In this document: positions 1,871-33,095 of the stretch, in pieces
How the letters are laid out: each line of letters opens with the position of its first letter
How positions within the stretch are numbered: position 1 is the stretch's first letter
Assembly (NCBI GenBank): GCA_973895155.1
Contig: OZ316897.1
Span: 19,106,168-19,170,167, forward strand
From: Marsupella aquatica
Lineage: Eukaryota > Plantae > Marchantiophyta
Reading direction: 5' to 3'
Length of the DNA stretch: 64,000 nucleotides
The notes under the pieces: generated by a model
Database searches by the model: none
Seen by the model: the letters and a program-made list of their open reading frames with translations, nothing else
Told to the model about the DNA's origin: nothing
Program-made: the position numbers and the translations under genes

Positions 1871-1920
1871 AGGGGTGGGGCGTCCTTTGGCCCAGATAGC
1901 AAAGGAATAGAAGAGCCATC

Positions 1921-2136: not shown

Positions 2137-2140
2137 AGTC

Positions 2141-2347: not shown

Positions 2348-2419
2348 AACTTATAAGCATGCAAGGTTAACTTCAAAAGAGCCAACATGCTCTTGCCAGA
2401 AAACACGGTCACCCGGACA

Positions 2420-3746: not shown

Positions 3747-3990
3747 TCACATGGACCGATCCCACAGAATTACTGAATTTAAGCTTTCACCGACCAGGTC
3801 CGCCCCTGCGTTTGGATAAGGTAACTCAGCAAGGTGGAAGAATGCATCCTCAATAGAAACACTGATTCTATGCTTGCCAATCGGAATGTTGTGACAAGAG
3901 TTCGAGGGAGTAATGTTGAAAACCGTCCCACCCGCAACCGGTTCATCATTCAATAAGAGATTAACTCGATCCCCAAGGGAAAACATATTC
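3747..3990 (-). pseudogene. Isolated Tnp1/En/Spm (TnpA C-terminal, Transposase_23-like) domain fragment
   Basis: PVAGGTV...CHNIPIG...ISVSIEDAF...LPYP...VGESLNSVILW matches the VA.G...H...V.V...LP.P...G...LW pattern also seen at 48013-49915. Confidence 0.6.
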
Positions 3991-5942: not shown

Positions 5943-8900
5943 TCACACTTGGTCACCTTCAATGTCCTCTACATCTGACACAAAAATAGTGTCTGGCTTA
6001 TCTGAAACAATGGAACGAGACCGTGGCACATATGTGATGACAAGTGACCACTCTGGGTCTAAGGGGTATGGAACGTAGAAACATTGCTCCAAGTGAGATG
6101 GGAAAGTAAATGGCTCTGACGTTTGCCAATGATATGCTTGAAAACTAGTGGCACTTGTCCTCAACCGTGTAAACCCACTCTCATCTTGGAGTACAGTGCA
6201 ATTATTACCAACAAGGTTCACTTTGAACCACTTGCACTTGAAGACATACTCCTCAAACTTAGATTGGTTGTCATATGAGACCACCAAAATCTCCTCTATC
6301 TTCCCATAGTGTGGCACAACATCACGAACAATGTTCCTGTCATGTCGGCTACTCCGGGAGTCCTGACAAAACTGCCCTTGAACTCCACAATCAAAAGTAC
6401 AAGCCCTCTTCTCATCAAGGGAAGAAATCCTGAAATTAACAAGACCCATATATTGTTATACTACACAAAAAACACTAATCATGTTATGAGGAACCTTTCA
6501 TACCAAAAGAGAAAAACACACTTATCTTAAGTAAAATGATTACTATATCTTAAGTAGTAGTACATGAATATGGAAAATAAGGTTAGGAACTAGTGAAACC
6601 TGAAGTGTCTCCCTTGGGTCCACATGGCCGTCTTGGATGTTACCAAGTCTCTCAAAGGGCCATGAACAATGGTCCGAATGTCATTTGTCATAGTAGGAAA
6701 CTGTGAGACATCTCCTCCTTGTGCCAAAATGCCATCCAACTCAACCAACTTTTCCTTCATAAACTCATGCAACTTAGGAAAAATCCTTGCCCTTTGACTC
6801 ATTCTTTTGGCATTGTCATAAAACTCCCTCCATTCATCCATGACATTGCTATTACTCAACATGAATGTATTCAACTGTGTCCACTCTGTTGATGTAAGCA
6901 TGCGTGTTTTTGTTGCTCCTGTTAAACGGTCCTCCTCCTCTTGCCTCTCCTCCATCCAAGTACGTGGTAAAGTCCGATCAATGGTGGCCAAGATGTTACT
7001 ACAATAAAACATGCTCTCTGCAGCCAAGTATCCTGTAGCTATGCTTCCCTCCACTCGTGCACGGTTACGTACATAAGCCTTCAAGACTGACATGTAACGC
7101 TCAAGCCAGTACATCCATTGACAATGAACTGGACCAGCAATGGCAACCTCCCTCACAAGATGCACAAGTAAATGAACCTGATAATCAAAGAAGGAAAGAG
7201 GGAGGGCCTTCTCCAACTTGCAAACCACCTCAGCAGCCAATACCTCCATTCCAGGAATCTCTTCCACATATATCTCCTTTGAGCATATCCATCTCAACAA
7301 ACGACCCAATGACCAAATGGCATCTTGCACTTCTTTGGTCCCCAACCCTATAATTGCCACTGGCAATATATGCTGCAATAAGCGGTGATAGTCATGTGTC
7401 TTGAGATACCGTGGCCATTTGTGATTGTCCTCCATCCCAAAAGCTTTCCTCAAATTGGCACCATAGCCTGTAGGAAACCGCATCTCCCCTATACGATTCC
7501 GGAATTCACGTCTTTGGCCAACACTAAGCACCCCAAGGAGCAGAAGGACGATGTTCCAAACCTGTGGCAGGATCAACTTGTACCCATACATCTGGATGCA
7601 TTTCCAACTCTTCACATGCCTCCCTGAAGTTAGTGTCCTTCTCCTCATAAAAATGAGCTATCAACGCCTTCCCCACATTTCCCTCTATGTGCATGGGGTC
7701 TAAAAGATGGCGGATCTTCAACTCTGACCAATAGGGCAAACTGGCTAGTATACTCCACCTCGTCAACCCAGTACCATCAAAGGTGAGGGGATTATCAGGG
7801 TCTGCCACCCTATCAGCTAGTGACTTCCAATGCCCAAAAGTTGTTGGTTCCGGAATTTCCCGCATATCACCAAGGGGCATGTCAAAGGAGGAAAATAAAA
7901 GTGGGTCAGACCTCATCTCATGCCCCATCGGAAGAAACTTTGTATGCCCAATGTAAACAATCTTCCTAAGCCATGGGGACCAAATTGCCATATCTTGCAA
8001 TTGTGGACCACAGGTGGAGCAAGCTTTGTACCCCTGAGTTTGCAATCCAGAGACAAAGCCAAACCCTGGTTACACCAAAAATAAAACCAAACTAAATGTT
8101 AGGGTTGTCACATGACAAACAAGTATATTAAAGAGCATATCAAAGAAGGGTGGCATATGGTCAAAAAGTCATCTTACCAGGATAGTCATGCATTGTCCAA
8201 CAAACTACCCCTCTCAATTTAAATACACGTGGAATGTCTCCTGTATTTTTCCTGCCATCATATGCCCACACTCCACCCCACAGTTTTTGGAGTTCTCCAA
8301 TCAATAGTGCCAAATAAGTGTCAAAGTTCTTCACCTTTTTTGGACCTGGAATAATCAAAGACAGCAAGAGGAACCCCTTCTTCATGGATAGCCATGGTGG
8401 AAGGTTGTAATTCATCACAACCACAAGCCAAACTGATGTAGGTCTTCCCTTGCCTCCAAGGGCATGAGGACTAACCCCATCAGATGCCAATCCCAACCTC
8501 ACATGATGAGGATCATGTGCAAAGTCTGGCCATGTTTCCTCAATATGTTTGACTGCAGGAGAGTCAATTGGCAACCGCATAACACCAGGCTCTGATCGAT
8601 GAGTCTTATGCCATACCATCAACTCTGCCAAATCAGAACACCTGTACATGTGCAACAACCGAGGAATGATGGGAAACCAACGAACAGCTTTTCTTGGCAC
8701 CTTCTTTGTAATCATGTTGGGGTCATACCGTGGCTCATGACATTCAGTACACTGTGTCTTCTTCTCATCGGCCCCATGAAATAACATGCAATCATTCACA
8801 CATGCATGAATGATATGATATTTCATGCCAATTGATGAGAGAACACGCTTGGCCTCCTTCCAAGTTCCTGGCAACACATTGCCAAAAGGTAACATAAGGT

Positions 8901-10657
8901 CATGGCAAAGTGCAAACATATCAGATAACAAGGCATTGCTTGCCTTGTGTTTGGCCTGTAGATTCATCAACCCCAAGATAGCAGAGAGATGACTCAAACG
9001 AGCACCCTCATAGATAGGAGTTTGGGCATGTTCCTCTGCTTCCTCCCATTGGCGCTGTCCCTCGGGGGTATGTCTTGGTCGTGGATCATTGGGGGGCACA
9101 TGACCTCTTTGATCAGCAGACACCTCAGCATCATCACCAGGGACGTCAACACCAAACCAATCAACCATAAAATCATCCATGGCTCTATCTTGGTCATCAA
9201 TAACCTGTTCATATGTTCTGGGTACATTGCGATCAGGGTTGTTGCTTCCACTGTCACTTGATGAGGAATGTGACTCAGAGCCTTGTCCTTCTTCCGGCAT
9301 ACCCATTTCCCGATATGCTGCTCTCAATCTCCGCGGTAACATATTTTGAGAGGGTCGCACATTCTAAAAACAATGCAAACAATTGAAAGTTACAAAGCAA
9401 ATAGTTACAACATGTAGAAGAATATATGGGGGTGTGAAAACATGAAATAATATTGGTACTGGTGTAAATACAAAATGTGGCCAAACGCCATGTGTATGGT
9501 CATTTTCTAATCCCACACATAGTGAGTAAACAACTCATCACCTGAGTGAATGGTCCTAGTAGCTACAACCAGACAATGGTCATGATGATATGTCTGGCCA
9601 TAAGGGGCTGGTGGAGGACCCTCAATGAAAACCCACTCACAATTTTGCCTACGCTTGGGGCGAGTCCCCACAGTACTGTTTATGAAACCAGCTATATTCC
9701 CAGTTCATATGGGGTCCCCATCTATCACCCGCTGCTCACTATACCTCCTAGTGTTTCCATCAAAAGTATCTAACTCCAAGGCATAAGTCTTCCACTCAGG
9801 ATGTTGTGCAAGGATCATGTTCCAATGTCTTCTCTTGTAGATGGGTCCACCATAAGGAAACAACGTAGGTCCTTCTCGACCGCGTCCACCACTACCACTC
9901 TCGGTATCCACAATGATGTCTTCACAAGCAAAAACTCCATAGCCATGTCTATCCCCAAGTGTGGAAGGTTTGATAACCCAACGTCTTCCCCAAACCTCTA
10001 CCTCCTCACCATAGGAAAGCTCTTGTGGCAAACCAAGAGTTTGGGGATCCCAGTCCTTGATGATAGGAACACATCTGCCAGTAAACTCACAATCACCCCA
10101 CCTACCGGTAACCACTGCCTTGTACAAATCAGTATCCCCTCGGGGCCGTCTCTTGGAACGCTTTCTCCCTCTTGGGACAACAGGCTCACCCCCAACTGCC
10201 CTAGGACTGGAGGGGGCTGTTGCTAGACCCAAGGCTTGTGAGAATGCATTGCCTATAGCATCTAGAACACCTTGTGATGGGACATAAGGTGCTGATGCCG
10301 CAGGTCTAGGCCTACTAGATACCTATTCCACCCAAACCAAAACAAACAACAAGAGGTGTGAAATTAAAAACCTTCACCATTGCGATGTGGAAATAGGGTA
10401 GAAACTAAGGCGTAAACACTTACCACATGGGATGAGGAAGCCCCTATTGTATGACATCCGTAACGTCCATATCTCTCAATATGCTGGGTGCATATATAGG
10501 ACTTTTGGGAAACCTGACCCACGCATTTGGCACATTGGCAAAGCTGACGGGGTGGACCACGAGGAGGAGGTGCAGTCGTGTGAGGTTGAGGAGGAGGTGG
10601 TATATCTTCATCGGAGGAGGAAGAATCTGTGGTGGAGATCTCAGAAGATGAAGACAT
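5943..10657 (-). pseudogene. TnpD/Tnp2-family CACTA transposase (transposase-associated Zn domain, Tnp2, DUF4218- and DUF4216-like regions)
   Basis: Motifs IHACVNDC, WFPIIPRL, VRLGLASDG, YNLPPW, TMHDYPG, LDPMHIEGN, KTHDYH, HLLVHL, WMYWLERY, YGKIEEI and FKCKWF. GT-AG introns. Frameshift near 7530. Confidence 0.93.
9507..10322 (-). pseudogene. SET-domain exon inside CACTA-1 (one premature TGA at 9705-9707)
   Basis: HGYGVFA, YGG, IDGDPI*TGNIAGFINS, NC and VATRTIHSGDELFTHY give the SET motif order. 816-nt phase-0 exon after an AG acceptor. Confidence 0.8.
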
Positions 10658-11049
10658 TGCCCCTACAAAGATGTATAATTTGCAAGTTAGGGGTTATTAC
10701 CAAATAACATCACAATATCAAGCTGGACAAATGTAAGTTCTCAAGTAATGATGACATGAAACCAAACACAAAAGGAACACTAAAAAATACCTTTCTGAGA
10801 CCCAGGCTCAGTGGTGCCAATAGGTCTTGTGGCTCTAAAATAATGAACCGAATCTGGAAGTATGAGAAAAGCTGCAAGTACACAAAGCGAACACCTTACA
10901 TACATGTCCTCTTTATAGATAGTGGGAACCAAAAATTTTAATTACATGAATAAGCCTAACTAGACCCATCTATTTTAGTCCGTACCTCCAGATGCCCGGG
11001 CTCATACGATGCATACGCATTAGCTAGTATCAATTCATGCAAAAGTGCT

Positions 11050-11560
11050 GCACCCTGCAAGTTGTCATAGCTCCTCCTCCTTTGTTAGCATAAAACCCAT
11101 GGAAAAACCATTAAACCCCAAAAGATCCATAAAACCCATTAAAACCCATAAAACCCATGGTAAAACAACTAAAGCATTAATCTCATCTAACCTTGCTTTG
11201 CCTTTTCCAAACCCTCACCCCCAAACCTCTGACCTATTACAAAAACCTAGACCCTCACTCCCAATCCCCTTCCTCTCTTTTGTTTTAAACCCTAAACCCT
11301 TGCTTGAACCCTAAAAGCCTACAACCATAAATGCAAACCCTGCTTAAACCCAAAATTAAAGACTTAAACCCTAAACCCAAACCCAACTTTAATCCTAAAC
11401 CCTTTCCTCACTTATTAATTTTAAACCAAAACCCAACTCTTATCAAAATTAGCCTACACCCACACCATGTATAGCTTAAAAAATGGAAGGTTTGACTGGT
11501 AATCTCGCTTTTAACCCCTAAAAAAACCAGCTTCATCCAAGACCCAACCCTAACAAACGC
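11050..11560. repeat. AAACCC(T/A)-rich tract, telo-box-like, between the divergent CACTA-1 genes
   Basis: Several AAACCCTAA, AAACCCAT and AAACCCAA copies. Confidence 0.5.
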
Positions 11561-12023
11561 CGGGATTTGAAACGGCGGAATTTCTTAATTACACAAAAGG
11601 GCATAGTATAACTTACATGGCCTAAACAAAAGGAGGAGGGAAAGAATGTGAAAAAAAAATTCGCCAGGAATTGCCACGATATTGAGAACCGACCTGCTTC
11701 GCAACCTGCTTCAGAATTTGGTCACATTATTTGCGAAGCAAAATGTTTCGCAACAGCTTCGGAAAAACAGAGCCCGAGAGCATTTTTTCGCGTCTCTGCA
11801 GCTTTGCGAAGGCTTTGCAAAGCATGTGGTTTCGCATTGGTTTTGGAAAGTTGAGATACTAGTTGCGAAGCGGGCTGATTCACAAATTGCGATGCGGACT
11901 GCGTCGCAAATGTGTTTTGTCTGGGCATTCGGACCTTCCCGCCGGGTTACGAGGCCCATTCGACGTTTTTTGAAGTGAGGGAGGGCAGGAGGAGAGCTTG
12001 CGCGCGCTTGGTGTTGGATAGCT

Positions 12024-14070
12024 ATGGATTCTAGTGGAGGGCGTGGAGGGGATGGGGCAGGGGCAAGTGGGAGTGGGAGTGGCAATGGCAATGGAGGGAA
12101 CAGGAATGAGGAGAGTAATCAATGGACGAATTTGATGGCCGAGCATCTCAATGCCACACAGCTGAGCCATTTGGATTTGAGTACACCAGTTGGGATTGCT
12201 TCTTTGAGTGCAATTCTAGGGCAAGCTTTGCAAACCGGGGTTGCAGTAGGGCAGGCTTAGAGGGAGAAAGAGGCAAAGGCTGCAGCTGAGGAGAAGGCCA
12301 GAGAGAAGAAACGAAAGAAGGAGGAGAGGGCTAAGGCAGGAGTACTCTCTCCTGCAGCCCTCGAAAAGAAGAGGAGAAGGGAGGAACGAGATGAGATTCG
12401 AGCACAACGTGAGGCGCAGCGGAAAAAGGAGGAAGAGAGGAAGAAGCTGCCATTGATTGCCTTGGTTGAGGGCATTCCTACTGAGTTGGCCTACACTGGG
12501 GCAAAGAGCACTATCAAGCTTGCTGTGAGGACTAGCTTTGCACGAGGTGTTGAGTGGGGGAAACTAAGCAGAGCAGAGCAGAGGAAAGTAATGACTCAGG
12601 TCAAAGATTCATTCAGAAATGGAGCAGAGATTGATGACCAGTGGCTTGCAGATAGAATTTTGAATTCAATGTCTCAAGCACGATACCATGATAGGAGGAA
12701 GGTGAGGGCCTACCTGGCAAGCTTGCAGGAGTACAAGAATGTGAGGAGGCCAGTGCAATTCACAGAGGATGTGTGGAACGTGTTCTATAAGGTCGAGGTG
12801 CAGCTGAAAGCAGCCAAGGACCTCCAATTCTGGAAGGAGAAGGAGGCCAAGGCACTTCAGGCCGGGAAGTCAGACAAAGACCTCAAGGCATTGGCTGAGA
12901 AGGTCTCTCAGCTGCAGCACATCGTGGATGAAGTGGGGACACCACCCTAGAAGTTCATCCTTGCAGCAGACCGAGTCAGCAAACGCCCCAAGACCACACA
13001 CAAGATGGGGCAAGGTGGACTTCCCGGCCTGAAAGCAACCTTCGTGAGTCCTCTCCCCTCCTCCCCTACTTCTTTTCCTTCGCCTTCAATAGTTGTTTGC
13101 TTGCCTGCAATGCCCCTCGCAGACCTCTGCTTTACCCCTTATGGCCTCCCCTTTCGTTTTAGGTCACCCTGACACATTGCGTGCCTTAGCCATTTCTCGG
13201 ATTTTTTTAAAAGCACAGTTTGCGAAACAATTGCGAAGCGGGTTGCCTCACAATTGTTTCGCAAACTCTATTATAACCTTTTTCCCGTAAGGTTTGCAAA
13301 GCCATTGCAAAGCAATCCGATTCGCAGTCTATTTTGCAAACTTAAATATATTTGAATTTGCGAAGGTGGGAGTTTCGCAAAGCTTGTTTCATTTTGAAAA
13401 ATGTTTAGTGTCGAGTGACAAATGTTTGTTAGGGTAATGGGGTTTTTTTCTGGTTAGGGTACCCTTTTTACCCTTTTTAGGATTCCTTTTTTGCTTAAGT
13501 ACCCTTAGTTACTAACCCGGGCCCCTTATGTTTTGGTGTTTCATTTTTTTGTGGTAGTATAAGAGGTACCGCCACAAGATAACAACAAAGGAGATGGAGA
13601 TAGGAGCAGAGCATGGGGCCAGACATCTCTTTGAGTTGGTTGATGCAGAGTTGGCTAGTGTGAGTGATTTGTAGTACCCTTTCTAAACCCGCACTCATTC
13701 CATTTATAAGGTTTATACATTTTTCCTATTAACCCTAAACCCGAATTAACCTTGTGACATGGAAGCAGGATAAGGAGTAGGAGGGGAGTGAGGATAGCAG
13801 TGAGGAGGGTAGCGGCGCTGATGATGGGGACACTACCGGGGCCACCACGAGTGGGTCCAGAGGGGCAGGGAGTGCTGCCACACCTAGCACACCAGGAGAC
13901 CAGGAGGATGATGATGAGGATGATGACGATGATGAGGATGAGCCAGATGGGGAGGAGCAACAGGCACCACCACCACCGCCACCACCACCACCACCCCCCT
14001 CCCGTCCAGCTCGTCCCGCCCAAAGCAAGAAGGACAAGGGGAAGAGGCCAGCAAAGAGGAGTAGGCGGGC
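12024..14070 (+). pseudogene. TnpA-like (Ptta/En/Spm, Transposase_24-like) gene of CACTA-1, divergent from TnpD
   Basis: Spliced ORF containing ...VEWGKL...RRPVQFTEDVWNVF...THKMGQGG and an acidic, Pro-rich last exon. In-frame TAG stops at 12258 and 12948. Confidence 0.6.
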
Positions 14071-17000
14071 TCCATTCTAGAGGATGCAGATGTAGTTCAC
14101 TCCATATGGCATATGGATTAGTCAAAGGACAGTGTCTTGGTATTTGATACCCCATAGGGTTTTAGAAAACCCTAATTTTTGTACATTCAGGGATTTTTGG
14201 CATATATAAAGTTTTGCTTTGGTATCTTCATGTGGAGCAATAAGACCCCAACCCAATTATGAACCCAAATATACAAAACCCAGCCCTCAAACTATCCTTG
14301 CGAAACACATGCGAACGCCATACTATCGCAAACTTGTCATACATTGAGTATTGGAACATTGCGATACTTTTGGTTCCGCAATTGTGCGACACCCTGATTG
14401 ACGCAGTTATGCGATACCATATGAATGGCAACGGAATTGTCAAGACAACAGCTTCGCAAATAAGTTATAGTTCAGAGCGTGTCGCAAACCGATAAAGAGT
14501 CTGTCGAGATCGCATAAATGTGATTTATGTGCGATAAAATAAGTTTTGTAGTGTGCGAAGGTGTTGCGAAGGGGTTGCGAAAGTCCGATTGCGAAGCTGT
14601 GGGTTTCAAAGAATGCGAAAGGGTTGCGATGCATAGCGTTTCGCAAACGCCGGAATTTCATAATTTGGTCCTTTGTTAGTTGCGATGGGACGGGGTTCGC
14701 AAAAGGGGTCGGTAGTGTTGTAGTGAACCACCCGTGCCAGAACTTATCCTCGGTGAGAGAATCAGGACGACTAATCGATAAATACCATTCCCAGATAGAA
14801 ATCCCAAATATAATGGACAAAAATGATAGGGTGATCACTCTGCTAGATCGTTGTGTGGTCCAATTTTCCGATATTTTGGCGGTGCAATTAATCATGTCAG
14901 ATAATGACAATAGATAATGACAAAAGAATAAGCACATCTGCTTGAATGTGACAGGCTGATAGCTTTGCATGATTGTCGTCTGGTAAGATTCGTCGATATT
15001 TTTGGCGGCGCTCTTAATGATGTCTTCACGCTTCACGCTGGCCCATTTTCACGCTTGCCCATTCCTCGTGTCAGTTATATATTTCAAGGAGATTCGCTCA
15101 TTCACTCATTCCTTCATCTTTGCCCTCTCGCTCATTCTTCGCCCTTTTGCTCATTCATCTCTCCCTTTGAGTTCTGCTCAATTACGTCCATATTTTGCAA
15201 ATTGTTTCACACGTGCGAAGAGGTTTCATGGCGAATCTATCTGAATCGGAGGTCCGAGAGATGTCGGTAATATGTGCCCCAACTTTAGAAGATGGTAGTC
15301 AAGCGGGCAAAGTCCATTTTGGTCGAATGAGTTGTTTTCTGGACGAATTGTCCATTTTTGTGAATAATAAAATCTCGGCATTTGTTTTGACATCTTGGAC
15401 TCTATTCTAAATCTTCCGTATTGGTTCTTTCCTAGGATTCCCGTATGTTTGTTTCAGCCACCCGCGCCTACCGCAGCCGCTAAGTCGAAGCACTGTTAGC
15501 CACCAAAATCCAATCGTCAATTCATGGTCTTTTGAAATGCGTATGGAGGGTGACGCTTGGAGGTGTTGGTTGTAGGGGATCGTTATTGCCAAGCCCAAAA
15601 GGTTTTGGAAGTACTTGGGTGTGCTTGCCGATTGTAGGATTTCAAAAGCACCAGAGCACCAGAAGGGGAAGGTCTTTCTGACAGTGACGGTGGAGGACCG
15701 TGTTAATTGTGGATATAGAGAGTTCTCTCTTGCCGTTGAACAATATTGTTGCGCACATTGTCTTGAGCCAAATGATGCGACAATGAACATAACGTCCTTA
15801 GGATTTTTTGATCCATCCACTCAACATTTCATGGATCCAGATAATGTTCTCACTACTGAGGATATTGTTTTAGGGCTGGGAAGGGTTAGTTTTTTGTTCT
15901 TCAAAGATTATCAATCTCACCTTTCTGCAACCAGGCATGTTGTTTACGTCATGTCTCTATCTTTACTGGAAGATGAACCCCGACAGGAGATCGAGATCGT
16001 TCTGGAAATTTCTTTCCCAGATCCTGTTGACGAGGAAAGGATTAAACGTTGGGTTGCAACCCATGCTGTAGTGAAGGCCTTCAATTTGAATCAGAAAAGG
16101 CACGGACGTCATGGTGGTGGCCCAAATCTCAAAGCAAGCAAAGTTGTACAGGAACCTGGATTGTCGTCGAGTTCAGATTCAGGATCATCAAGTTCATAGG
16201 GTACATCAGATGAACCAAGCATTGTTCCTAGTGACTCTTTTAGTCCTGAGTTGGTTGGAACAGAGGAGATCTTTGAAGATGAGATCCAAGTCGTGGATGA
16301 AGAACTCGTGGAAGTGGGAGGTTCAGAGGCTGAAGAGGAAAAGGACTCTAAGACTGAGATGGAGGTGTAGAAGAAAAAGAAAAGAAAGCGAATGGAAGAA
16401 GACGCTCCTTCCAAGAAGAAGAGATTGTCTTCAAAGATTGCTCTTCCAGAGAAGGTTGGGAAAGCTAATGTCCCTCAGGAAAAAATCCGCACTAGCTCTA
16501 CTGAGGTGAAAGGGCCACAGATTGCAAAGTCCAAACAACCACAGAAGAAGATTAAAGCGGCCGAAATACCATAACAGAAGAAGGCTATCAGGAAGAAGGC
16601 AAGCAGGCAGTTGTGGAAGATATAGCAAAACCCATATCAAAAGGTGTCGTTAAGAAGGATTTATCTTGTAAGGCTTCTATTGCAACACCTTCCGCTGTCG
16701 TGAAACAAAAGGTGCCCTCAAAATCTCAAAAGGTCAATACTCAAGTGCAAGACGTATCCACAGACCATGGGGTGACAAGATCGGAGAAGTCCAAACGTGG
16801 AAGGGGCCGCAAAAGAGACACTGAGGGAATGGAAGAGGCACCGGAAACCGATGTCCCAATCCTGAAGAAACAACGTAAGAAAGTGGAGATGATTGAGATG
16901 GATATCGTGGATGACATGGGAGAGATGAATGTTGACTCGAGTTCTAAAGTAATCGTTGATCAAGCCAGACTTGAGAGGGAAGAAAAGACTTTGCAGCAAA

Positions 17001-18349
17001 ACCATTGCTGGTATTCTTTTGGGCTGTATATCTATCCTCCGCCGGCAAAAATGAATGAGCGGTTACTCAACGAAGACCATGTCAACCATCTTGTTCAGTT
17101 GATGATTTTAAATGTCGGTCAGGAACCTTTGCCTGCAGATCTGGTGCCTTACAAGATGATTAATGGTGTTTACAGTCTTATCGATCTTTCCGTCAGAGAT
17201 TTTGATTCTAAACAATTATCTGAGTATCAATATTGTGCAATAAGTGGTCAACACTCGACTATGGCCACGAGGAAAATCATTTGGAGTTCTCGGACACAGC
17301 CATCTCTGGTTAAAACTGCCAACCTCCTAAAATTCCGTCGTGCAAGAATTCTCAAGGGGTCGACACCTGTTAAGGTGTTGGTTGAGATTTCACATGCAAA
17401 CAACTTGCAAGCTGAAGCACATCGTTTCTCGTCACCATTCATCGACCAGGTCAAGCATGCGAGAATGCAATATTCGGAAATGAATCAACCAGTGCGGCCA
17501 GTGCCGTCAGGGCAAAAATCCCAGGAATTCCAGGTCCGTTCTTGTTGACACCATAATTTCTTTTGTGGTCCACACAAGCCTCGTGTAGAATCCGAGGCTT
17601 GGATCTAAGATAACTTCTCCAAAGGTTTGGTTTACTGTGTTGTTCTTACCGTTTGTTGTTGGGTTTCAGGATTACGAAGGGTTGGCCAAAGTCACACTGA
17701 AAGTGAGTAGCATCAGCGAATACAACTGGATCCTTTTCATATTGGAGAGCCTCTATAAGTTGTGGATGTCGGTCTGCAATAGTTAGTTGTCTGGTAGTTT
17801 ACCTGACACCAATGGAGAGATGACTGGGAAGAAGAGGGAAGCAAAGCAGCTTACTGGGACGACATTCAGGGTATTTGAGAGGGTGCAAGAATCTGACATT
17901 ACCTCTATCTTGAATAAAGTTCAACCGGAAGAGGTTCTCTTGATGAAGAGAAGACATGCAAGGACAAATATACCTTCAATGTCCGATCTTGCCATGAAAG
18001 CCAAGTATACTGAAAAGCTGAAAGGTGCAATCTTGCGGTTCTACCGCGAGACCTATGAAAGTGTTTTCAATGTTGGGGCCGTTTGGTCGGACGTGGGCCG
18101 CGAGTTTAATTTCATGAATGAAGAATTGGATCAATGTTGCTCAATGGTCGACAATGCTTATTTCAAGAGTTTAGTCAAGGTCTCTACAAAATCCGATATG
18201 CCGGAACCTTTGAAGAATAGGTTACGGTGTCGTGATTTTCTCTTAAGTTATAAAAAATTGTTTGTTTTAATATGCTATAAATTATAAAGTAATTTAGTAG
18301 TTAGATTATTAAATTTAGACTTTATTCAACTTCTTTAGCTATATTAACG

Positions 18350-18545
18350 GACTATAGTAGTTCCACCAATGCATATGAGTAGTTCCACCAACTACAATAA
18401 TATTCACCAACGCACAGTAGGTCCACCAGCGCATAGTAGGTCCACCAATGCACAGTAGGTCCACCAACGCATAGTAGTTCCACCAACGCATAGTAGTTCC
18501 ACCAACGCATGGTAGTTCCACCTACTAAAAGTAGTTTCACCAACT
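18350..18545. repeat. ~20-bp tandem repeat (TAGTAGTTCCACCAACGCA) in the LTR U3 region
   Basis: About 9 degenerate copies visible. Confidence 0.9.
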
Positions 18546-18995
18546 ATGAACAGTACTAGCACACTCTTAGGTATTAGATGTTTGACACTTGGCCTTCATC
18601 CAAGTGCTTGGGCTTGATCCATGCCCTCTTGGTGTGCACTATAAATAAAATGGTGAGGGGCACTCTCCCCTCATTCCGCAGTGTTTATCATTCAAGGTTG
18701 TGAAGCTCTTTTGTGCCTTGAACATAGTAGTGGGGCATCCTTTGGCCCGGATAGCAAAGGAATAGGAGAGCCATCATGAAATCAGGAGAGAGAGTTATCC
18801 TTGATCTTCCCCTTCGTAATCCGTTTTTGATTAGAGTCCATCTTTTAGACAAACCATCTATGAGATAACATCTAACCTATCATTTTGGAGCTCAGTTTGC
18901 AACTGCTGTTATGGTTTCTAACGAGCCAATAATATACCCAGTGATGTCGTACCGAGAGGAGTGGGAGTGCATCATCTTTATCCTTTATTGAAGTC

Positions 18996-19202
18996 ATGGA
19001 TCTGAATAGGAGTCCGAATGATATTCCTGTTTCATTTTCTCTTGGAGATATTAGGATCATATGTCGTAAGAAATCTAATTTTTGTGATGTGTTGGTCCGC
19101 AAGTATGGTGAAGTAGGGTTTAACAGTATTTTAGTTTCACTTGAACCTTTCTTAATACCCACTACCTTTGTTACTAGAATTATCATTTTGATTTTAGTGT
19201 AG
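18996..19202 (+). CDS. LTR-borne small ORF B copy (ORF A in this copy has a premature TAA)
   Basis: MDLNRSPNDIPVSF... is open. The upstream ORF A (ATG at 18776) has AGG CAA changed to AGA TAA. Confidence 0.5.
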   Translation: MDLNRSPNDIPVSFSLGDIRIICRKKSNFCDVLVRKYGEVGFNSILVSLEPFLIPTTFVTRIIILILV

Positions 19203-20426
19203 AACTTATAAGCATGCAAGGTTAACTTCAAAAGAGCCAACATGCTCTTGCCAGAAAACACGGTCACCCGGACAACGGAATATTTACCAAAAAAAATTTG
19301 AGGAAACTGTCCGTGAGAGAATGGATCCATATTGAATATTTTACTCTGGGAATCTTCTTGCTTCCGCGGAGCCTCCTTTTGATTTGACGAGTTGTAGGGA
19401 GAGGATTAATGTGTCACTTGCTATTGTCGATATGACACACTCAATTCAAAATACCTGGACACAATCGGAGCTGCTGAATTTCTTGAAGACTGTTGTGAAT
19501 GTGCCCGCCAACGACTTGGTGACTGTCGTGTTTTTTGTGCACCCAGGTCTCTTGCTGGCCAGAATTATTGAAGCTGTCACTGATCTACCTTCCAGTTATA
19601 ATGCTCATCTGGAGTATGGAAGCTATTGGAAGAGTGCGAAAGAAGTCCGCTCATCGCATTTCATGTCGGGTATTATTGAGTCCATTGTTTTCCTTGGAGT
19701 CTCCCAGGAACAAGAACCGGATTGGGAAAAACATTCAAGAGGGTTTCAAGGTCATTTCTTGGCAAAATCCATGGATCAGCTTGAACTGGCAAGACCAGCC
19801 AAAGAAGATTATGCTGGCCTTTCCAAGGAAGAGGTTGCAGCAAAGCAAAAATCCGCTCTTGGAGATCGCTTGTATAGACTCATTCCTTTCCGGAACCCCG
19901 GTGGCAGAACATTTACATCAAACATTAAGCCCAGCAGAATTATCAAGGCAATCATTCTTTGATTTTCCGAAAAGGAGGAAATTATGTTGGACTTCTTTAC
20001 TGGTGGGCAAGTTTTAAAGAATGCCCTACTTCTGGAAAGGGAATGTTTCTCGTTTTGTTCGGAAAGGGGGGATGTGATGGACCTCACGGCTTATGCGGAG
20101 AATGTCAAGTCGTTGGAGGGTGTCGCACAATTTGTGAAATCCTTATGGAAACTTCCACGAGGGGAGGGCAGCTCAACGCAAAACTCTAATGCAAGTGGCG
20201 CAAAGGAAGGGAGGCACTATCATGTCACTGGAACAGTCTCCCATCAAGACGATAACAGATTTTCTGATCCTTGTGTTGGAATGATTAATGTTGGGGAACA
20301 GATTTGCCGTCCATGGGAATTGGGTGAGGCGCAAAGACCGATCCACCACTTAGGGAGTTTCGAAGGACCTCTTGTGGAGGAAGAACACAATGACGATCTC
20401 GGGGGTTAACTTAGTGTATATTTTGG

Positions 20427-20655
20427 GGCACCACGTGCGATCCTAACCTAATATAAACACACCTCTTTTATTATGGGAATATTCTAAAAATATTCTCTAT
20501 TTTTAATACAAATGACCTATTTTACTTTATAAAAGGTATATATTAGAGAATATTCTACAAATATAGGTTTATAATCCCTTCTTTTGCTTTCTATGCTTTT
20601 TAAAAATTTAGCTAATTTATATGAAAAATACCTATTTTGGATCGCACGTGGTTCC
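20427..20655. mobile_element. MITE (Tourist/PIF-Harbinger-like)
   Basis: 17-bp inverted ends GGCACCACGTGCGATCC / GGATCGCACGTGGTTCC with one mismatch, a very AT-rich interior, and TAA on the right flank. The left boundary/TSD is not clean. Confidence 0.7.
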
Positions 20656-20921
20656 TAAGATTGTTGATAGTCAACCCCCCAAGATGATGATGGGATACCT
20701 CTATCTCTACGCGAGCCTCGTGTGGGGTCGTTTGGCGAGGTGGACTCAATTATAAATGATATTGCACCGGTTGTGTCTGAGGATCCTTCCGATTACCTTC
20801 GGGTTATCACTGGAGTTCAAGAGGCCGTTAACATCGTCAATCCATCCCTCCCCATACTTGGGCAGAAAATCAGGGTCCATGCGAGGTCGAGCCCGTCATC
20901 GAACATGTCAATAATGTTGTC

Positions 20922-21679
20922 GTGGAACTTGCAGTGGAGCCTGCGAATGAGGCAGGTGCCAATTCACTCTTTCCCACTTCTCTCAACCTGAACGATGATG
21001 TGGCGATAGACTTTTGCCTCAACCCTGACATGGATCTTAACATGGATCAGGATTTAGTTTTGTCAACAATCAGTGGATGCGTCATAACTTGTCGCGAGAT
21101 GGCATGTCTAGGTCCTGAGCGATGGATAACTTCTAAAATTATGAATGCTTATTTTGGTTTGATTGCTTCAAGAGCAGAATCCGCGGGTACCGACCTCCCG
21201 CAGGTTCATATTTTTGATACTTGGTTCTATTCGGAACTTGCTCGAGGTGGATACAAGTATGACGATGTTCAAACTTGGACCTCAAAGTTGGAGTACTTTT
21301 AACTGATGTAGAGATGGTCATGGTCCCTATTCATAAGGGACATAACCATTGGGCACTGGTCATCATCGACATGGGTCTTAGGAAATTGGACTATTTGGAT
21401 TCTTTGCACGGAGATAACCCTGAAGTTCTTGAGAACCTAGCAAGATATCTAGATGATGAAGCCATGTTCAGAACTCATAAGGAACTGAATGCTTTGTCAT
21501 GGCCAAGAAACTGTTGTAAAGACATCCCTCTTCAAACCAATGACTACAACTGTGGAGTGTTTGTCATGAAATTTGTCGATTACCGGAGTAGGGAGAAGCC
21601 TATTTATTTCAAAGCCGAGGACATGGATGTTGAAAGGAGGAATATTCTTCTAAGCCTTTATCGTCACCATTTGAGTTAG
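20922..21679 (+). pseudogene. Ulp1/SENP-family (peptidase C48) protease domain
   Basis: WITSKIMNAY, HIFDTWFY, VPIH..HNHWAL, YLDSL and LQTNDYNCGVF retain the His-Asp-Gln-Cys catalytic residues. One frameshift near 21295. Confidence 0.9.
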
Positions 21680-21790
21680 ATCTCCGTGATTCTCGTGTGG
21701 AATAGGTTATCGTCAGACTTCCATACGCTGCAATGCATCGTAATTGATGTTACGCTCTTGCATTGACTTTATGATATTGATGTTCATTTA

Positions 21791-22857
21791 TTGTTTGGTC
21801 ACTCTATAGATATTGTAACATACGATATGGCAACTATTATACAAAACATCATTCCTCGTAAACTGCTCATACTTGACATGAATGTCGTCTTACATATTGT
21901 GCAAATATCGGGAGTGCGAGCAAAGTCTCTTAGGGATATAAATACTGAAAACGGGGAGACATTGTTTCTAAATAATAGAATCATCTATGTAAGACCGGGA
22001 ATGCGGCACTTCGTTGAATGGTGTCTTCAGACATTTGATGTGGGGATATGGGCCTCTGCCGTATATCGTAATGTGCATGAGATTTTGGAGAAAGTGTTTC
22101 CCAACGAGAAGCATCAATTTGTCTTTGTGAGAACTGAAGCGGAAGCCTTGTCGACTAGGATATTTTATGGGGCTGGAAGAAACAAAGGGAAAAATTGCTT
22201 TGTGAAATTACTGAAAAATATTTGGGATGACCTCGTTTTATATGGAGATCGGACAAGTGCACCTTATAATGACAGCAACACCATCCTTCTTGATGATTTA
22301 CCTCATAGAAGTTTCTTTAACCCCGAATACTCGACGTTGTTTTGTGATTGCTTCAACGGCAATAATAATGGTTTCCTTGCAGATACGTTTATAAGCAACA
22401 AACTTCTGAAACCAGTGTTGCAGGAGTTGGCCTTGGCAAGAGATGTGCGTGTGTATTGTGGCGAAACACTCCAAAATGGTCCAGTCTGAATTTAGCTGAA
22501 GACCGAAAACAGTATCAATAGATATACACTCAACTGCAGGGGTTTGGGGAATCTAATTCGCTTTTTGCGTCGTGGCCAGTGTGCAAATATGATGTTCTCC
22601 AACTGACAACTTCAAAACTTACACCTCGGCACATAGAGATCATATTGTGGATGTCTCGTAAGGAAAACTTCACTGAGCATGAAACTAATCAATGTACAAA
22701 AGTCCTAGGAGCTGCGCATGGGCTATTCGCCACAAATTTTAGGGAGTTTGTGAAAGTAGTCAGCGAAGTTCACAGACAAACGTCAAAATTCTGTAGAATA
22801 AACACAGGAGTAAAGAGTAGGCAGGACTTAGTACTTCAGATTATGGATAGAATTTAG
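21791..22857 (+). pseudogene. NIF/FCP1-homology (HAD-like) domain protein (copy 1)
   Basis: KLLILDMN, YVRPG...F...C...FDVGIW, K.L..IWD and NTILLDD.P...F.NP. A premature TGA at 22487 precedes a C-terminal extension. Confidence 0.8.
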
Positions 22858-23532
22858 TGAATATGTTTCATATAGATTAGAATTAGCCCCATTTGGAGGG
22901 AGGGGTGAAGGGCAATGCGCAACCCTGGAATCATTCCTTTTGGTTTGGCCCAATAGCAGAGGAGAGGAGAAGAGAGTCGTTTTGGCTTGAAGGCGGACAC
23001 AATTGGACTATGGCGGAATGCAGAGGGGAGAGGGGAGGCTTTGGCAGGGGTTTTGGAAGATGGACAGAGTTTAGGGAGGAGAAATAGGTGTCTGTGACAA
23101 AGCTATCCTTCATTTGTTAGTTCACAAATATTCTTGATATGATTAGTGTAGCTGTCTAGTCAAATATGTGTAGTTGTCTAGTCAACTTTGTAGTCACTTT
23201 AGCGGAAGACGATGTTGTTAGCGAAAAACCCAACAATTATGAAGTCCCATGAAGGGATATCAAAATATATGTACGGCACCACCGTTAGTGCCCCATTTAT
23301 TATAAAGAGTAATTTCAGTCATTCATTTTAAGGAGTACTTTTTTCATTGCCTTTGAATTCGTAATTCATCCAATGCACTAGATTTTGGAAATTTAAAAGT
23401 ATGCTTTTGGAAACTTCAATTTTGGGTTTTGGAAATTTCAGATCATGTTTTTGGATTTTTGAAATGAATGTTTTGGAAATTTCATTCTTCAACTTTGGAC
23501 AAAAGAATCTCCAAAGTTAGTGAAATGTTAGA

Positions 23533-23765
23533 TCAGTGTGCATGCTGCAGTGTACGATCTACAGTGTGCATGCTACAGTGTACGGTCTACAGAGTGCATG
23601 CTACAATACATGGTAGACCTACAGTATCCATGCTACAGTGTACGATCTACAGTGTGCATGTTAAATTGCAAAACTTATAGTATGCATGCTACAGTGTATG
23701 ATCTACAATATGCATGCTATAGTGTACGATCTATAGTGTACATGCTACAGTGTACTGCCTACAGT
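23533..23765. repeat. ~28-bp tandem repeat (CAGTGTGCATGCTACAGTGTACGATCTA)
   Basis: About 8 degenerate copies upstream of the TATA-like box. Confidence 0.9.
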
Positions 23766-24420
23766 TGCTCCACTCACTAACTATAGTACTAGCACACTTA
23801 CTTGCCTTGGATGTGTGACACATGGCTTCCATCCGTGTGCCATGCTTGATCCGTGTGCTTGAGGTGTGAGCACTATAAATAAAGAGGAGAGGGGCTGTCT
23901 CCTCTCACTCTCCATTTTTCATCAACTAAGTTGTGAAGCCTTAAGAATCCATTGGACTTGATGATTCTTCTATGAATATAACCCTTATGAAGTAGACCCA
24001 CTCATGCACTCTTGCTTAGAGCTTTGACTCGGCCAGAGATATTTTGTATAAGTTGGACCTTCAAAAAGTGTTATCATTTGATAGGAGATGGTTATTAAGT
24101 TCTAAAAAGTTGCAAAGTGCTCAACAATGCCTTGACATCATATGCTCTTTTTGGGTAAAATCCTTATGAAGTAGACCCACGCATGTACACTGGCCTGGAG
24201 TTTAACTCAGTCAGTGGTAATTTGTATGCGTTGGACCTTCAGATAGTATTTTTATTCAAAAGAAGATAAACCTATTAAGATAAACATCTGCATGTATATA
24301 TTCTTAAAGTTAACTCAATGTATAGTATTTGTTTAAAATGAATGATCTTTTTTGGTGAGTGATTATATATCTTGTCATTAGAATGAATATTAGTTGGATG
24401 GAATATTTGATAGTACGATA

Positions 24421-24838
24421 ATGCCCAGACTAGTATCTGTTCTTTCTCTCCCTAATCCTTTCCTTATTAGAATTCATGTACTCCAAAAAAAGATAATACG
24501 TCAGCATATGACTTTTCACTTTGGAGAAGCATTTGCAACTGCGGTGTTAAATTTAATAGAGCCAATTGTATACCCTTATGTAGTTTATGGTCAGGATTGG
24601 GCTTACACAATTTTTATCTTGTATTGAGATGGATCTCAACAAACCTCCCTCCGATGAACCTCCCGTTTCTTTCTTGTTGGGAGATATTTGTTTTGTAACT
24701 CGATCCAAGGTAGCTGCCAAGGAGGCAATAGTCCGTAGGTATGGAGAAAAGGGTTATGATGTTGTGCTTTCATCCACAGAACCATTCCTTGTGGTGTCTG
24801 CTACCCAATCTAGAATAGTAATCATGATCTTAACTTAA
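24421..24838 (+). CDS. Diverged small ORF A (24421-24627) and ORF B (24629-24838, MDLNKPP...) pair
   Basis: Both frames are open and align at the protein level with 1921-2347. Confidence 0.55.
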
Positions 24839-24905
24839 GTTCTCTCTTGACACTAGCAGCCATAGGCCTAGTGCTTCCTCAAGAACCACATTTTTTCCCC
24901 AGACA

Positions 24906-26737
24906 ACGTTAATGTGGATCCACCAGAATATATTGAAGAAGATTTTGAGGATGACAAAGAGGAAGAGGAGGGGGAAGCACCTCAAAATTTGGATGTAGAG
25001 AGCGAAGGAGGGGCAGAGGCCTTACGAAACCTGAGTGAGTAGGCCAAGCAATGTCGCAAGAGCCTCAAGAGGAAACGGAGGGCAGTAACCCTCTCGCAGG
25101 AAGGTGAAGATGAAGATGAAGATGAAGAAAAAGAAGAAGAAGAAGAAGAAGGGAGGAATGCCACCTTCCAACAACCCACGCTGTCCAAACTTTTGGATAC
25201 CACCAATCTGGTAGAATTGAGGACTTCTGCCCAATGTCTGGCGTTCATAGGAAAGCCAATCCCCAACGCCAGGGATCTACGTTACTAGTTGAGGGATTTG
25301 AAGGAGAACAAGGCAATGGCAAGGATAGCAGTCATGGAATCTGAGGGCAAGACTTGGGACATGGAGAAGCTGAGGATAGCAAGAGAGAAGGTTGAGCGAC
25401 TCCTTATAAAGGTACATAAGAAGCCCAAATCTAACAAGCTCATATTGAAACAGCTAGAGGACTTAGAGGGATTGCTAGACAAGGCAAGGGAGAAAATGAG
25501 GAAGCAACCACAGCCTTGCAGCAGGCCCGAGAGGCGGTCCGGACAGAGAAGGTTGGGACACAGGCCCTAAAGGTCGAGTTAGGAAAAGCCCAGAAGGAGA
25601 GAAAGAAGCTGCAGGAGCTACTGGCTGACAAGGAGGAAGAATGGAGCCACCTCTTGTCGACCGCCGAAGAGGAGTTAAAGGAGGTAACCACCCAGCATGT
25701 GAACTGCGGTTCTGTATCCCAGTAGAAGGCCGATGAGCTGCAAAGCTAGGGTAATTGAAGAGTTGGAGCATAGAGTAGGAGAAGGAGAACAATTGGCACT
25801 TTGGCTGTCCGACCAGTTGGTTGCGCATGGGAAAATGGTGGAAGAGCTCGCAGAGAAAGAGGCATCAACCAGATTAGGAGCTTTGGAGTGGGAGGAGAAG
25901 CTCCAAGAAGTATTTAAGAGAGCCAATCGTGAGCTACAAGGAAAATTAGAGGAGAAGCATACATACATTGTTGGGTTAGAAGAAAAAGGGGAAAGAAGAG
26001 AGAAGGAGAGGAAGAGATGGCTACAAGAGGTAGCAAGTAAGGAGCTCGTCCAACAATGCAGTAAGGTGGTCCGGATTCCGACAAACACCTACAAGGCCTA
26101 GGACTTGGAAGTGTAGGGCATGCAAAATAAGTTTTTGAAGGATGCACTAGCAGATCCGGTGCACAAGAGGAGGCTGGAACAGCTCAAGAAGGTGAGTGTA
26201 AACTCGTGGAAACTATTCACAAGGCAGAAGTTAGATAGCATCCCAAAATGCTATTGAAGATGAAGCTAGGGGGTTGGAAACTCTCCGTGTTATTTTGGCC
26301 ACAGCGGGGATTAACAAGAGGGTCATTCGTCCGGACAATTGCGATCGGATATGGTATGACATCCCGGTCCGGATCAAATTTATGCTTCCATTCTTTGAAT
26401 GGTTGGGAGCCATTGGGTTCACCCAATCCACAGACTTATATTTTAGATTGGGAGGAAGGGCCAACAACAGAGTAACACAAATCTTGCTATCCAAACTAGA
26501 GCGAGAGCACGCTGGCCATCCATTCCTCATTATGTGGCTCTCATGGCAAATGCAAACACTACGCATCCCAACTGTCCGGCATGGAAACTCCATTGGTTCT
26601 ATAGTTTAGCAGTACATAGGAAAGCCTTTGATTTAGTAGAAGTAGTGATGAAGTCCTGGGCGGCAAGAGAAATCCACACCAACTGTAGGCAGTATACCTT
26701 GCCCCGCCTGGTTACTTTTCTCCAAACGGCCGGATGA
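24906..26737 (+). pseudogene. Degraded acidic / coiled-coil ORF of a probable retroelement accessory gene
   Basis: Long E/K-rich reading broken by many TAG stops and frameshifts. No recognised domain. Confidence 0.4.
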
Positions 26738-29199
26738 CACAACGCAGAAAGAAATGGGACAAGTGTGATTTTCAATCCTTACTACACCTCCCATCTTATA
26801 GTCCTTGGACCCCCACTCTTAGGTAAAACGGATTGGACGTAAGAACGATTCAAGGGTCAATTTAACTCATATTGAAGTAATTTTTAGAATTGACTTGTAA
26901 CTAAGCAATCCACTCTTTTATACAAATGTCACTTTCCAAATAAGGAAGGGCACTTGATATTCCGCTCCCATTTATTTTTGGGAAGGGGGTATAAAATCAT
27001 CTCCGGCACACGGTATCATCTTAGTGGTACACATGGCATCATCTAATAGCATGTACACATGTCTATGCCTTTTGGTATGCCGTTGTAAGTTATGGGCAGA
27101 GTTGTGGGGTTTAGGGTAGGGTATGTTGAGAAGTTTAGGGTGGGTTTTTTGAACTGCCCTATGAGGAAACACATGGGGCAATCCCTGCCCATTGGATCCG
27201 AGGGAGGGAAGATCTTTGAACAAAGAAAATGTAACTAGTAAAGCCTATATAAAAGTCCTCAAATCTGGACTTTATAATTATATCAATGATATTAAGTATT
27301 GTCAATATGTGTTTTTTTCTAAATAAGAAGGTAAATTTTTATTGTTTCAAAAATAATAACAAGGGGTACTAGAGGGGGGTCCGTTCATAGGGGGTAGAGA
27401 TTTTTTACTGGGAGTGGGGACCTAGGGATTATAGTAACCAATGAGTGGATGAGCTTTGTAGACCGGGATCCGACTGTAGTGGCTTGTGCGGGGGACACTA
27501 TCCAAACCAACGAGCTTCCCTTTGATCCAGTTGATTTGAGTCTAGGTGTTTGGGAGAAGACATCCTTTTAGGAAAGGGTGACCCCTATGGAGTGTAATTA
27601 ATTAGATTGTTAGAGGCAAGTGTACATAATTATAGATTAGGAAATTACTTTGGACCTGCAATCTTTTGGACACCACACCAATTCTTCTGGGAGCTTGTAG
27701 ACGACGACGGGTTTGGTCTACACATTGAGACCAACCCTATAGTGTGTATATCATTCAATATGGCATCATGATCCCCGGGTTAGTATGAGACTGCCCGAGC
27801 ACGAGGCCTTCCCCCCATTAAATCTTTTGGCTCAACTCAGGCGGTGGATAAATGCCCTTACGAATCGATATCCTTTTGGGCGTTTGCTTGCAAACCCTTG
27901 CTACTTCCGGTGGTATTGTTTTGCGCATTCTTTAATTGAGGTAGTGGATTGATCTGGACAAGCAGACATGGATCTTAATGGCAAGATGAAGTGTAAAAGG
28001 ATGATTATGTGGAAGCTGGGTAGCCGGGCGGGGCCAGCCATCGCGTGAATATACAATTTGTTAATAAGCACCAAGTTCTTAAAGGGGGAAGACCCCATAA
28101 TTAGATGCAGAGGACCACCAATGCCAACTCGGGCATACCTTATGGTATACCAACCCAATCCTGACACAGTGGACCATGACAAAATTGAGCTTGAGGACAA
28201 ATGAGGTCCTAACACTTACAAAGAATACCACAACTGAGGGCACAATTGGTGGGTATTCGTGGGTGAGACGCCGGGGGAAAGGGAGGAACGACACTTGAGA
28301 CAGCGGTATGAGTTCCAACGACAGTGCTAGGCTTGCCGCCAAATTGAGGCAGTGGCAGCAAGGGATGTAGAGGCAGCCACATGGGAGGCCGCCCATGAAA
28401 GAGAAATAGGACTGCCACCTGTTGTGCTAGAGAAATAAAAGAGCGGCGGATAGGATTAGGTTAGGAAGAGCACATTGCTCAGTAGAATGACGGTGGCCAT
28501 TGCCCCATTCTTAGGATGAATTGTAAAGTATCTAAACCCCTGGTCTGTGTGTGAAAAGGCAGGGAGAGCATTGCTCAGTTATAACACATTCTTGCAAGTA
28601 GAATCGCGTTGGTGTGTAATGTTCTTTTCCTGTTCTGATAAGTTAGTCTTTATTGAATTTGTAGTAGAGAGTGTCGTTGAGGAAGTAAGGTTTGGATACC
28701 CACAATAGTGACAATAGGAGGATGTTTTCTCCTGTATTGTAGTCTATCCGGACCAGTGTCAAGAACAAACAAGCTCCATTGTTCTTGATGACTATGTGTC
28801 TCACCTACGATAAGAGTAAGGATGAAAAGCCGCAATGGTGAGGTGAGCTTACTAGGAGTCTAGCTGGATCAGCCTATTCATTAAAAGTGTATTTTCTTTT
28901 GTTCACAAATCAGTCTTGAAATGTACACTTTCATGTCCCCAAATGTACACTTTTTGGTCCCTAAATGTACACTTTATAGGCCAAATCATATTAGTATTAT
29001 ATTAATAAATAATACATATTATATCATTTATTGATTCACAAAGAATAATAGGATAGAGATAATTATTTATTAATTCACAAAGAATAGTAGGATAGAGATC
29101 ATACTTATAAAAACATTTCAGCACAAAGAAACCCTTGAATATGTGTGAACAAAATGACATAACTCCAAATAGATTATAAAATAATATACAATTATCTCC

Positions 29200-32946: not shown

Positions 32947-33081
32947 TGTTATACCCTAACTAGGATTAGATATCTTAACCCGAGTTAAGATCTAACCAAG
33001 ATCTAACTCAACTACCTCATGTATATATATTGGACACATGAATAAGATTCATTACATTGTTGGAGCATATGGTTTGTAACA
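32947..33081 (+). repeat. 5' LTR
   Basis: TGTTATACCC...TGTAACA, identical to 39180-39314. Confidence 0.98.
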
Positions 33082-33095
33082 CGTTATCAGCACGA
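33082..33095 (+). promoter_or_regulatory. Primer-binding site (half-tRNA type, complementary to the tRNA-Ile anticodon arm)
   Basis: CGTTATCAGCACGA directly after the LTR, with no TGG start. Confidence 0.7.

Follow-up and report, generated by a model that had tools for sequence, protein, structure and literature searches.

Two decayed and strongly diverged copies of a gene that joins a ParB/Srx-like domain to the S-adenosylmethionine (SAM)-binding end of a beta-class amino-methyltransferase (MTase) lie within 64,000 nucleotides of the liverwort Marsupella aquatica (GenBank assembly GCA_973895155.1, contig OZ316897.1, positions 19,106,168 to 19,170,167 of the forward strand; this whole stretch is called the window). 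The window is transposon-dense eukaryotic DNA with three CACTA transposase regions, one Copia element, and fragments of long terminal repeat (LTR) elements. We tentatively read the two loci as decayed copies of an accessory gene carried by an unclassified mobile element; the gene's product would be a catalytically dead DNA-binding scaffold of ParB and MTase folds with exchangeable chromatin enzymes. Our confidence in this reading falls a little short of even.

We suppose a single acquisition of a ParB-MTase of phage or plasmid type, which subsequently gained an intron and lost catalysis. Its two folds would now, by analogy, recognize the element's own DNA, and the scaffold might bring a SUMO protease or a histone methyltransferase to it, with a separate NIF protein alongside, thereby loosening host silencing. 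This anti-silencing action is modeled on VANC/Kaonashi of the VANDAL group of Mutator-like elements (MULEs). That the element moves, that its protein counters silencing, and that the donor was a prokaryote are inferences.

Two collinear copies of a broken gene

Both copies are broken pseudogenes with a common order of N-terminal domain, ParB-like domain, shared intron, helical domain, MTase-like domain, and NIF open reading frame (ORF); a Ulp1 domain is confined to copy 1. Copy 1 spans 15228-22857 on the plus strand and begins with ATG at 15228. Its exon 1 region (15228-17533, +), with a possible small intron at about 15267-15435, encodes an N-terminal domain of unknown fold, a lysine-rich linker of low complexity, and the ParB/Srx-like domain at about 16934-17530. 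A phase-0 GT..AG intron follows (17534-17669, +), and its donor position is also found in copy 2. Exon 2 starts with the helical middle domain (17670-18227, +), is interrupted by a nested LTR-like insertion, and resumes at 19278 in register with copy 2 to encode the MTase-like domain and an acidic linker (19278-20409, +). Stop codons lie at 15573, 16197, 16368, 17784 (in the helical domain), 19333, and 19960 (both in the MTase-like domain), and the frame changes near 16560 and within the Ulp1 domain (21263-21300).

Neither of two insertions in copy 1 is part of the gene. The LTR-like one (18228-19273) has TG...CA ends and an ACGG duplication and is 96% identical to 1865-2423; a smaller one (20395-20689), which resembles a miniature inverted-repeat transposable element (MITE), has imperfect inverted ends. 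Joints lacking the LTR-like insertion were found in read contigs of two public sequencing runs, X2 and X5, and joints lacking the MITE-like insertion in those of run X2.

Copy 2 lies on the minus strand from 41412 to about 29350 and is collinear with copy 1 at 28-35% amino acid identity. In tblastn comparisons, the two copies matched with E values of 4e-17 for the ParB-like, 2e-20 for the helical, 1e-28 for the MTase-like, and 3e-14 for the NIF part. Its broken exon 1 (39800-41412, -) contains the N-terminal domain, linker, and ParB-like domain, and its exon 2 (30542-32914, -) the helical and MTase-like domains, an acidic linker, and a C-terminal part. The intron between them has received a Copia LTR retrotransposon (32947-39314, +) with a TTATC duplication, which does not belong to the gene. 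Several stop codons and frame changes disrupt copy 2. A first-pass annotation, made from the sequence alone, had described a repeated locus with ParB-like, MTase, Ulp1, and NIF parts and a diverged collinear copy on the minus strand; the motifs it named are present where it placed them, and the tblastn matches bear out the second copy. Its ParB-like motif is likewise present, in 16556-17545 of copy 1 (RLLNEDHVNHL ... AISGQHSTMA), with the spacing R-L-x4-HV rather than the x3 initially given.

A ParB/Srx-like domain in seed-free plants

The AlphaFold model of the ParB-like domain had a predicted local distance difference test (pLDDT) score of 86. The top six rows of a VIA structure search with this model were PadC, Pnob8 ParB, KorB, SerK, Srx, and SbnI (Z 6.1-4.2), all six of them ParB/Srx-fold proteins. 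PadC, the best row, aligned over 93 residues with Z 6.1 and a root-mean-square deviation of 3.5, and the first unrelated row had Z 4.1. The Foldseek ranking against the protein data bank (PDB) placed Noc and PadC first, at E 0.2-0.6. The predicted model thus lends moderate support to a ParB/Srx fold, which the first-pass annotation had proposed. Sequence profiles gave no such signal: none of 30 family members had a Pfam ParB match, scans with Pfam and NCBIfam pointed to no consistent family, and sequence searches of the PDB with the ParB-like domain returned no significant match. In the ESM Atlas, the domain fell into unnamed clusters (0.91-0.93) with a recognition value below the threshold, and the N-terminal domain found no usable match. 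ParB/Srx proteins bind nucleotides through an arginine motif of the type GxxRxxA or DGQHR. In the present family the dominant motif is ISGQHS, with 56 matches among 84 proteins, and no listed variant of the motif has an arginine after the histidine.

A HMMER search of 1.84 billion representatives at 50% identity found 55 proteins with the ParB-like domain at E<=0.001. We looked up 26 of them: four come from named plants (Calypogeia fissa, two from Riccia sorocarpa, and Diphasiastrum complanatum), 21 are environmental or Logan records, and the remaining one is a repeat protein from a bacterium that the family profile does not match. P0045 was rejected as a bacterial homologue for this reason. 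Four further relatives, three of them models from Adiantum nelumboides that are 96.5-97.5% identical to each other, came from a profile search of longer proteins; two of the three models end in a SET domain. These matches place the family in liverworts, a lycophyte, and a fern.

Among 58 profile hits, 53 stop no more than 70 residues from the ParB-like domain, and 26 of these 53 show an aromatic-x-V at the donor position, whereas P0020 and P0053 continue across the intron position. Judged by these ends of database proteins, the donor position would be common to copy 2 and most homologues, and relatives without an organism name are therefore probably eukaryotic.

An MTase-like domain that has probably lost catalysis

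The C-terminal ORF of copy 2 matched the MTase profile PF01555 with 28.2 bits, above the cut-off of 26.7 bits, and that of copy 1 with 19.0 bits. M.RsrI matched the C-terminal segment at E 0.0036. With hhalign, this segment aligned to 15 reference beta-class MTases over 35 columns with a score of 32.5, whereas none of 40 column shuffles scored above 20.7. The SAM-binding end carries motif X followed by motif I, the latter shortened to FxGG rather than FxGxG. It reads KPSRII..SEKEEIMLDFFTGG..LERECF at about 19930-20050 in copy 1, with KP..II and LDFFTGG, and has PHAKP and LDFFSGG in copy 2. By these sequence criteria, the MTase-like C-terminus is the SAM-binding end of a beta-class amino-MTase.

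The catalytic motif (D/S/N)PP(Y/F/W) is absent from copy 1 in three frames and from four homologues, and copy 2 has DFSR there. All five sequences that cover the inferred motif IV deviate from it (DFSR, DFSQ, DFSR, DFAR, and DMTH), copy 1 being the one with DMTH; the strand LAIVD was aligned with LIVTD. The predicted order of the N-terminal half, beta-alpha-beta-alpha-beta-beta, fits a catalytic half, although in a model of low confidence (pLDDT 42). An EPPF at about 19370 was tried as motif IV and rejected, as it is not conserved in the homologues. In the bdelloid enzyme N4CMT, the change of SPPY to APPA abolishes activity (PMC8885841), and Marchantia DN4MT1 carries TSPPY (bioRxiv 10.1101/2021.02.12.428880). 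Because the family lacks this motif, loss of MTase catalysis is likely. The proposal of a beta-class MTase in the first-pass annotation thus holds for the SAM-binding end but not for motif IV. Its notion of DNA modification, in the sense of an active enzyme, is not supported: the catalytic motif of N4CMT, DN4MT1, and the phage ParB-MTases is missing in five of five sequences that cover the position, and the ParB arginine is missing as well.

The MTase search yielded only three database proteins, the N-terminal half being found also in Riccia P0053, and a search of longer proteins with the MTase ORF of copy 2 returned none among 251 candidates.

Variable C-terminal partners

The Ulp1/C48 SUMO-protease domain of copy 1 (20832-21679, +) matches PF02902 with 80.8 bits. 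It is split by the frameshift and has no evident intron, and its catalytic residues are present, with codons for His, Asp, Gln, and Cys near 21347, 21398, 21533, and 21551. Downstream lies a NIF/FCP1-like ORF of the HAD type (21767-22857, +; PF03031, 41.7 bits), of which 22522-22857 is in another frame and whose motif is LILDMNV instead of the canonical DxDxT. Both parts had been noted at this place in the first-pass annotation. The NIF-like ORF of copy 2 (29356-30300, -) is broken and has the motif DLNKI. Neither a Pfam scan of the ORFs nor tblastn against copy 1 found a Ulp1 match in the C-terminal part of copy 2. The C-terminal partner thus varies: it is Ulp1 in copy 1, SET in the Adiantum gene models, and neither in copy 2, so Ulp1 belongs to the proposed toolkit in copy 1 but is not a constant part of it.

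SET-domain ORFs (PF00856) also stand upstream of the Tnp2 transposase in two related CACTA elements of the window (9510-10322, -, and 45706-46518, -). With the SET domain of the Adiantum ParB fusions they share 28% identity, which suggests that transposons have a SET module in common. Upstream of the third CACTA transposase (52736-56536) is an ORF of the NSD-type PHD-finger (57909-58736, -; PF22908, 37.6 bits).

Copy number and genomic carrier

The locus belongs to a multicopy family of diverged members, as had been suspected. Contigs assembled from four public runs span the whole region with many variants over a wide range of identity; run X2 alone gave 22-25 contigs with variants at sites 17454 and 19503 of copy 1. 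In a quick tree, which was made without bootstrap and excluded five short domain fragments and P0045, the two copies fall into different deep clades, and copy 1 groups with Calypogeia (SH-aLRT 95). Local tandem duplication as the source of the two copies was rejected on account of these different clades. A comparison of the flanks revealed no termini common to copies 1 and 2.

Because the CACTA element at 5043-14725 is complete, with its own ends and an AAC duplication, and the next CACTA end lies at 41537, neither neighboring CACTA element contains the gene. The same ends and duplication exclude copy 1 as cargo of the element at 5043-14725. No pair of CACTA termini brackets either copy, and an older outer element is a possible carrier. 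None of the 43 window ORFs scanned with Pfam has a MULE domain.

With the CACTA element removed, the sequence upstream of copy 1 contains a fragment at 3750-4055 (-) and an ORF at 145-3103 (-) with a coiled coil, neither with a significant Pfam match. The former presumably resembles the C-terminal domain of TnpA, and the latter a PMD-like plus coiled-coil protein. Both are a possible clue to the carrier.

Other elements of the window were noted in passing. The CACTA element at 5043-14725 has subterminal repeats of the TCGCAA type and a divergent ORF (12261-12947), and a 22-bp repeat unit flanks its insertion site on both sides. A non-autonomous CACTA-type element with a CTC duplication and 24-bp inverted subterminal arrays occupies 48147-49781. 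Between the tail-to-tail copies (about 23500-28900), LTR-like sequence related to 18228-19273 is followed by decayed coiled-coil ORFs and short repeats of high depth. A 408-bp tandem array of about 82% identity with an internal palindrome fills 61938-64000.

Comparison with known systems

Searches of the full-text literature found no description of the family, their coverage leaving aside supplements, which could list such proteins, as well as subscription journals and Repbase. The family is apparently undescribed. We would place it as a variant among the chromatin accessory genes that transposons carry, though it may yet prove to belong to a new class of element. Scans for related loci retained none of 70 and none of 40 pattern matches in JGI metagenomes, none of 21 in viral contigs, and none of 53 in prokaryotic genomes, and tblastn searches of phages gave no match or matches at chance level only. 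The viral contig, prokaryotic genome, and phage searches thus turned up no close prokaryotic or viral relative.

The nearest architecture is that of ParB-N6/N4 MTase fusions of phages and prophages, such as QGJ85624.1 of Streptococcus phage phi-SsuFJNP9_rum and the ParB-Tls loci (PMC4738411). They have ParB N-terminal to a beta-class MTase, as the plant protein does, and both show KP..I and LD.F.G at the SAM-binding end. However, QGJ85624.1 (417 aa) has GGHQR and DPPY where the plant protein has SGQHS and DF(S/A)(R/Q) or DMTH, and the plant protein adds an N-terminal domain, a helical domain of about 180 residues, an intron, and eukaryotic C-terminal partners. ParB-linked MTases have been listed in haptophytes, chlorophytes, and chytrids, with few in land plants (PMC4738411).

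The locus resembles VANC/Kaonashi (KIU) of the VANDAL MULEs in being an accessory gene that repeats carry, in some cases together with a captured Ulp1 domain; these MULEs lack terminal inverted repeats, and their anti-silencing genes include VANC-Ulp1 fusions (PMC13317346). The locus differs, by comparison of descriptions, in its core of ParB and MTase folds, in a host range so far limited to seed-free plants, and in that the scanned ORFs of the window include no MuDR transposase. The MTase of the DIRS1 retrotransposon is also an amino-MTase fold on a mobile element that is likely inactive through catalytic substitutions (PMC4738411). However, it is of group-2/PCIF1 derivation within a retro-polyprotein, whereas the plant domain is beta-class-like, fused to ParB, and accompanied by neither reverse transcriptase nor tyrosine recombinase. 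Bdelloid N4CMT and Marchantia DN4MT1 share with the family a eukaryotic beta-class-like MTase of probably prokaryotic origin. Compared by description, they are active host enzymes with SPPY or TSPPY, the available text mentioning no ParB, whereas the plant family lacks the motif and is repeat-like. Neither Replitrons (PMC10288648), which have the same host range, nor Tat elements (PMC13468544) have a matching accessory gene in the available parts of their descriptions.

Weighing the explanations

Several observations weigh against a dead scaffold carried by a mobile element. The VIA Z-scores of the ParB model lie below the comfort level of Z 8, and Foldseek found no match to it at E<=0.001. 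The N-terminal half of the MTase-like domain scored 13.7 against the 15 references, within the shuffle maximum of 17.6; fold searches with the domain model were unspecific, and because this model is poor, we positioned motif IV visually and from the predicted secondary structure. Outside the two copies, a link between the MTase and ParB parts is seen only in Riccia P0053, and there only for the N-terminal half of the MTase-like domain. Summed contig depth does not equal copy number, and the SET fusions of Adiantum are automatic gene models. Finally, no transposase, termini, or target-site duplication could be assigned to the gene within the window, and the first-pass annotation had likewise assigned no transposase or termini, so the case for mobility draws on how many copies there are, on their decay, and on their surroundings.

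Our motif pattern matched 11 of the 15 annotated reference MTases and missed four, and all five sequences retain the aspartate that closes the inferred strand 4; together these two observations leave room for catalytic activity. The protein could then be an active amino-methyltransferase with a non-canonical, aspartate-only site, through which a mobile element writes N4-methylcytosine (4mC) or N6-methyladenine (6mA) on its own DNA. The SAM-binding end, kept across copies that have diverged by about 70%, and the documented eukaryotic co-option of beta-class enzymes (PMC8885841; bioRxiv 10.1101/2021.02.12.428880) would fit such a writer. Nevertheless, the PP-aromatic part whose replacement kills N4CMT is absent, motif I is shortened, and the catalytic half has no detectable profile similarity. 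We consider an active writer less likely than a dead scaffold, and rather improbable overall. Slightly more improbable still is that the ParB-MTase-fold protein is the mobilizing machinery of a new kind of element, serving in end recognition, target choice, or nicking, and not an antagonist of silencing. ParB-fold proteins do include nucleases; the ParB-MTase protein stays constant within the cassette, in contrast to the varying Ulp1 and SET, and there is no other candidate enzyme within either copy, both of which lie outside the mapped CACTA ends. On the other hand, the 43 ORFs contain no DDE, HUH, or tyrosine-recombinase domain apart from those of CACTA and Copia, the ParB arginine is absent, and an ordinary carrier is possible because the upstream fragments presumably resemble CACTA or MULE accessory genes.

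Genes for ParB, MTase, Ulp1, and NIF proteins all occur in genomes of large DNA viruses or phage-like genomes, and the locus might be the fossil of such an integrated segment. In BFVD, the ParB model matched best to an uncharacterized protein of Cafeteria roenbergensis virus (E 5e-3) and next to phage ParB proteins, a weak structural link that points in this direction, as does the intronless appearance of Ulp1 and NIF. The spliceosomal intron conserved across distant members, the position of the copies among plant transposons, the lack of viral hallmark domains among the 43 ORFs, and the failure of the viral contig and phage searches to find a relative make this origin very improbable. We rate as equally improbable that the two copies are pseudogenes of a host gene family that seed-free plants keep at low copy number. 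The conserved intron and the wide taxonomic range would suit a host gene, and CpG depletion is milder in copy 1 (observed/expected 0.68) than in copy 2 (0.28-0.56) or the CACTA transposases (0.25-0.31). However, the unrelated ORF 145-1860 has a ratio of 0.69, so the value of copy 1 hints only weakly at lower methylation in the past. Moreover, both copies are broken and belong to different deep clades while lying 6 kb apart, each site is covered by many diverged contigs, the 97%-identical fern loci sit on separate scaffolds, and the family comprises dozens of clusters below 50% identity.

The decayed accessory gene of a mobile element therefore remains our preferred reading. A bolder extension, unlikely but deserving some weight, is an unrecognized class of mobile elements in liverworts, lycophytes, and ferns. 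Such elements would be built around a phage-derived ParB-methyltransferase, possibly an active non-canonical 4mC/6mA writer or their own mobilizing factor, and would evade plant silencing with its help and that of SUMO-protease, SET, and phosphatase modules that can be swapped.

Implications

To our knowledge, most of the anti-silencing proteins described for plant transposons come from the MULEs of flowering plants. If our reading is true, a family assembled from two prokaryotic DNA-handling folds would represent an independent solution to the conflict between transposons and silencing, and, with SUMO-protease or SET partners that can be interchanged, it would offer a programmable chromatin scaffold open to testing. 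PF01555 matches in genomes of seed-free plants need not mean 4mC or 6mA writers. If any lineage of the family is active, however, it would be a candidate source of marks other than 5-methylcytosine in these genomes.

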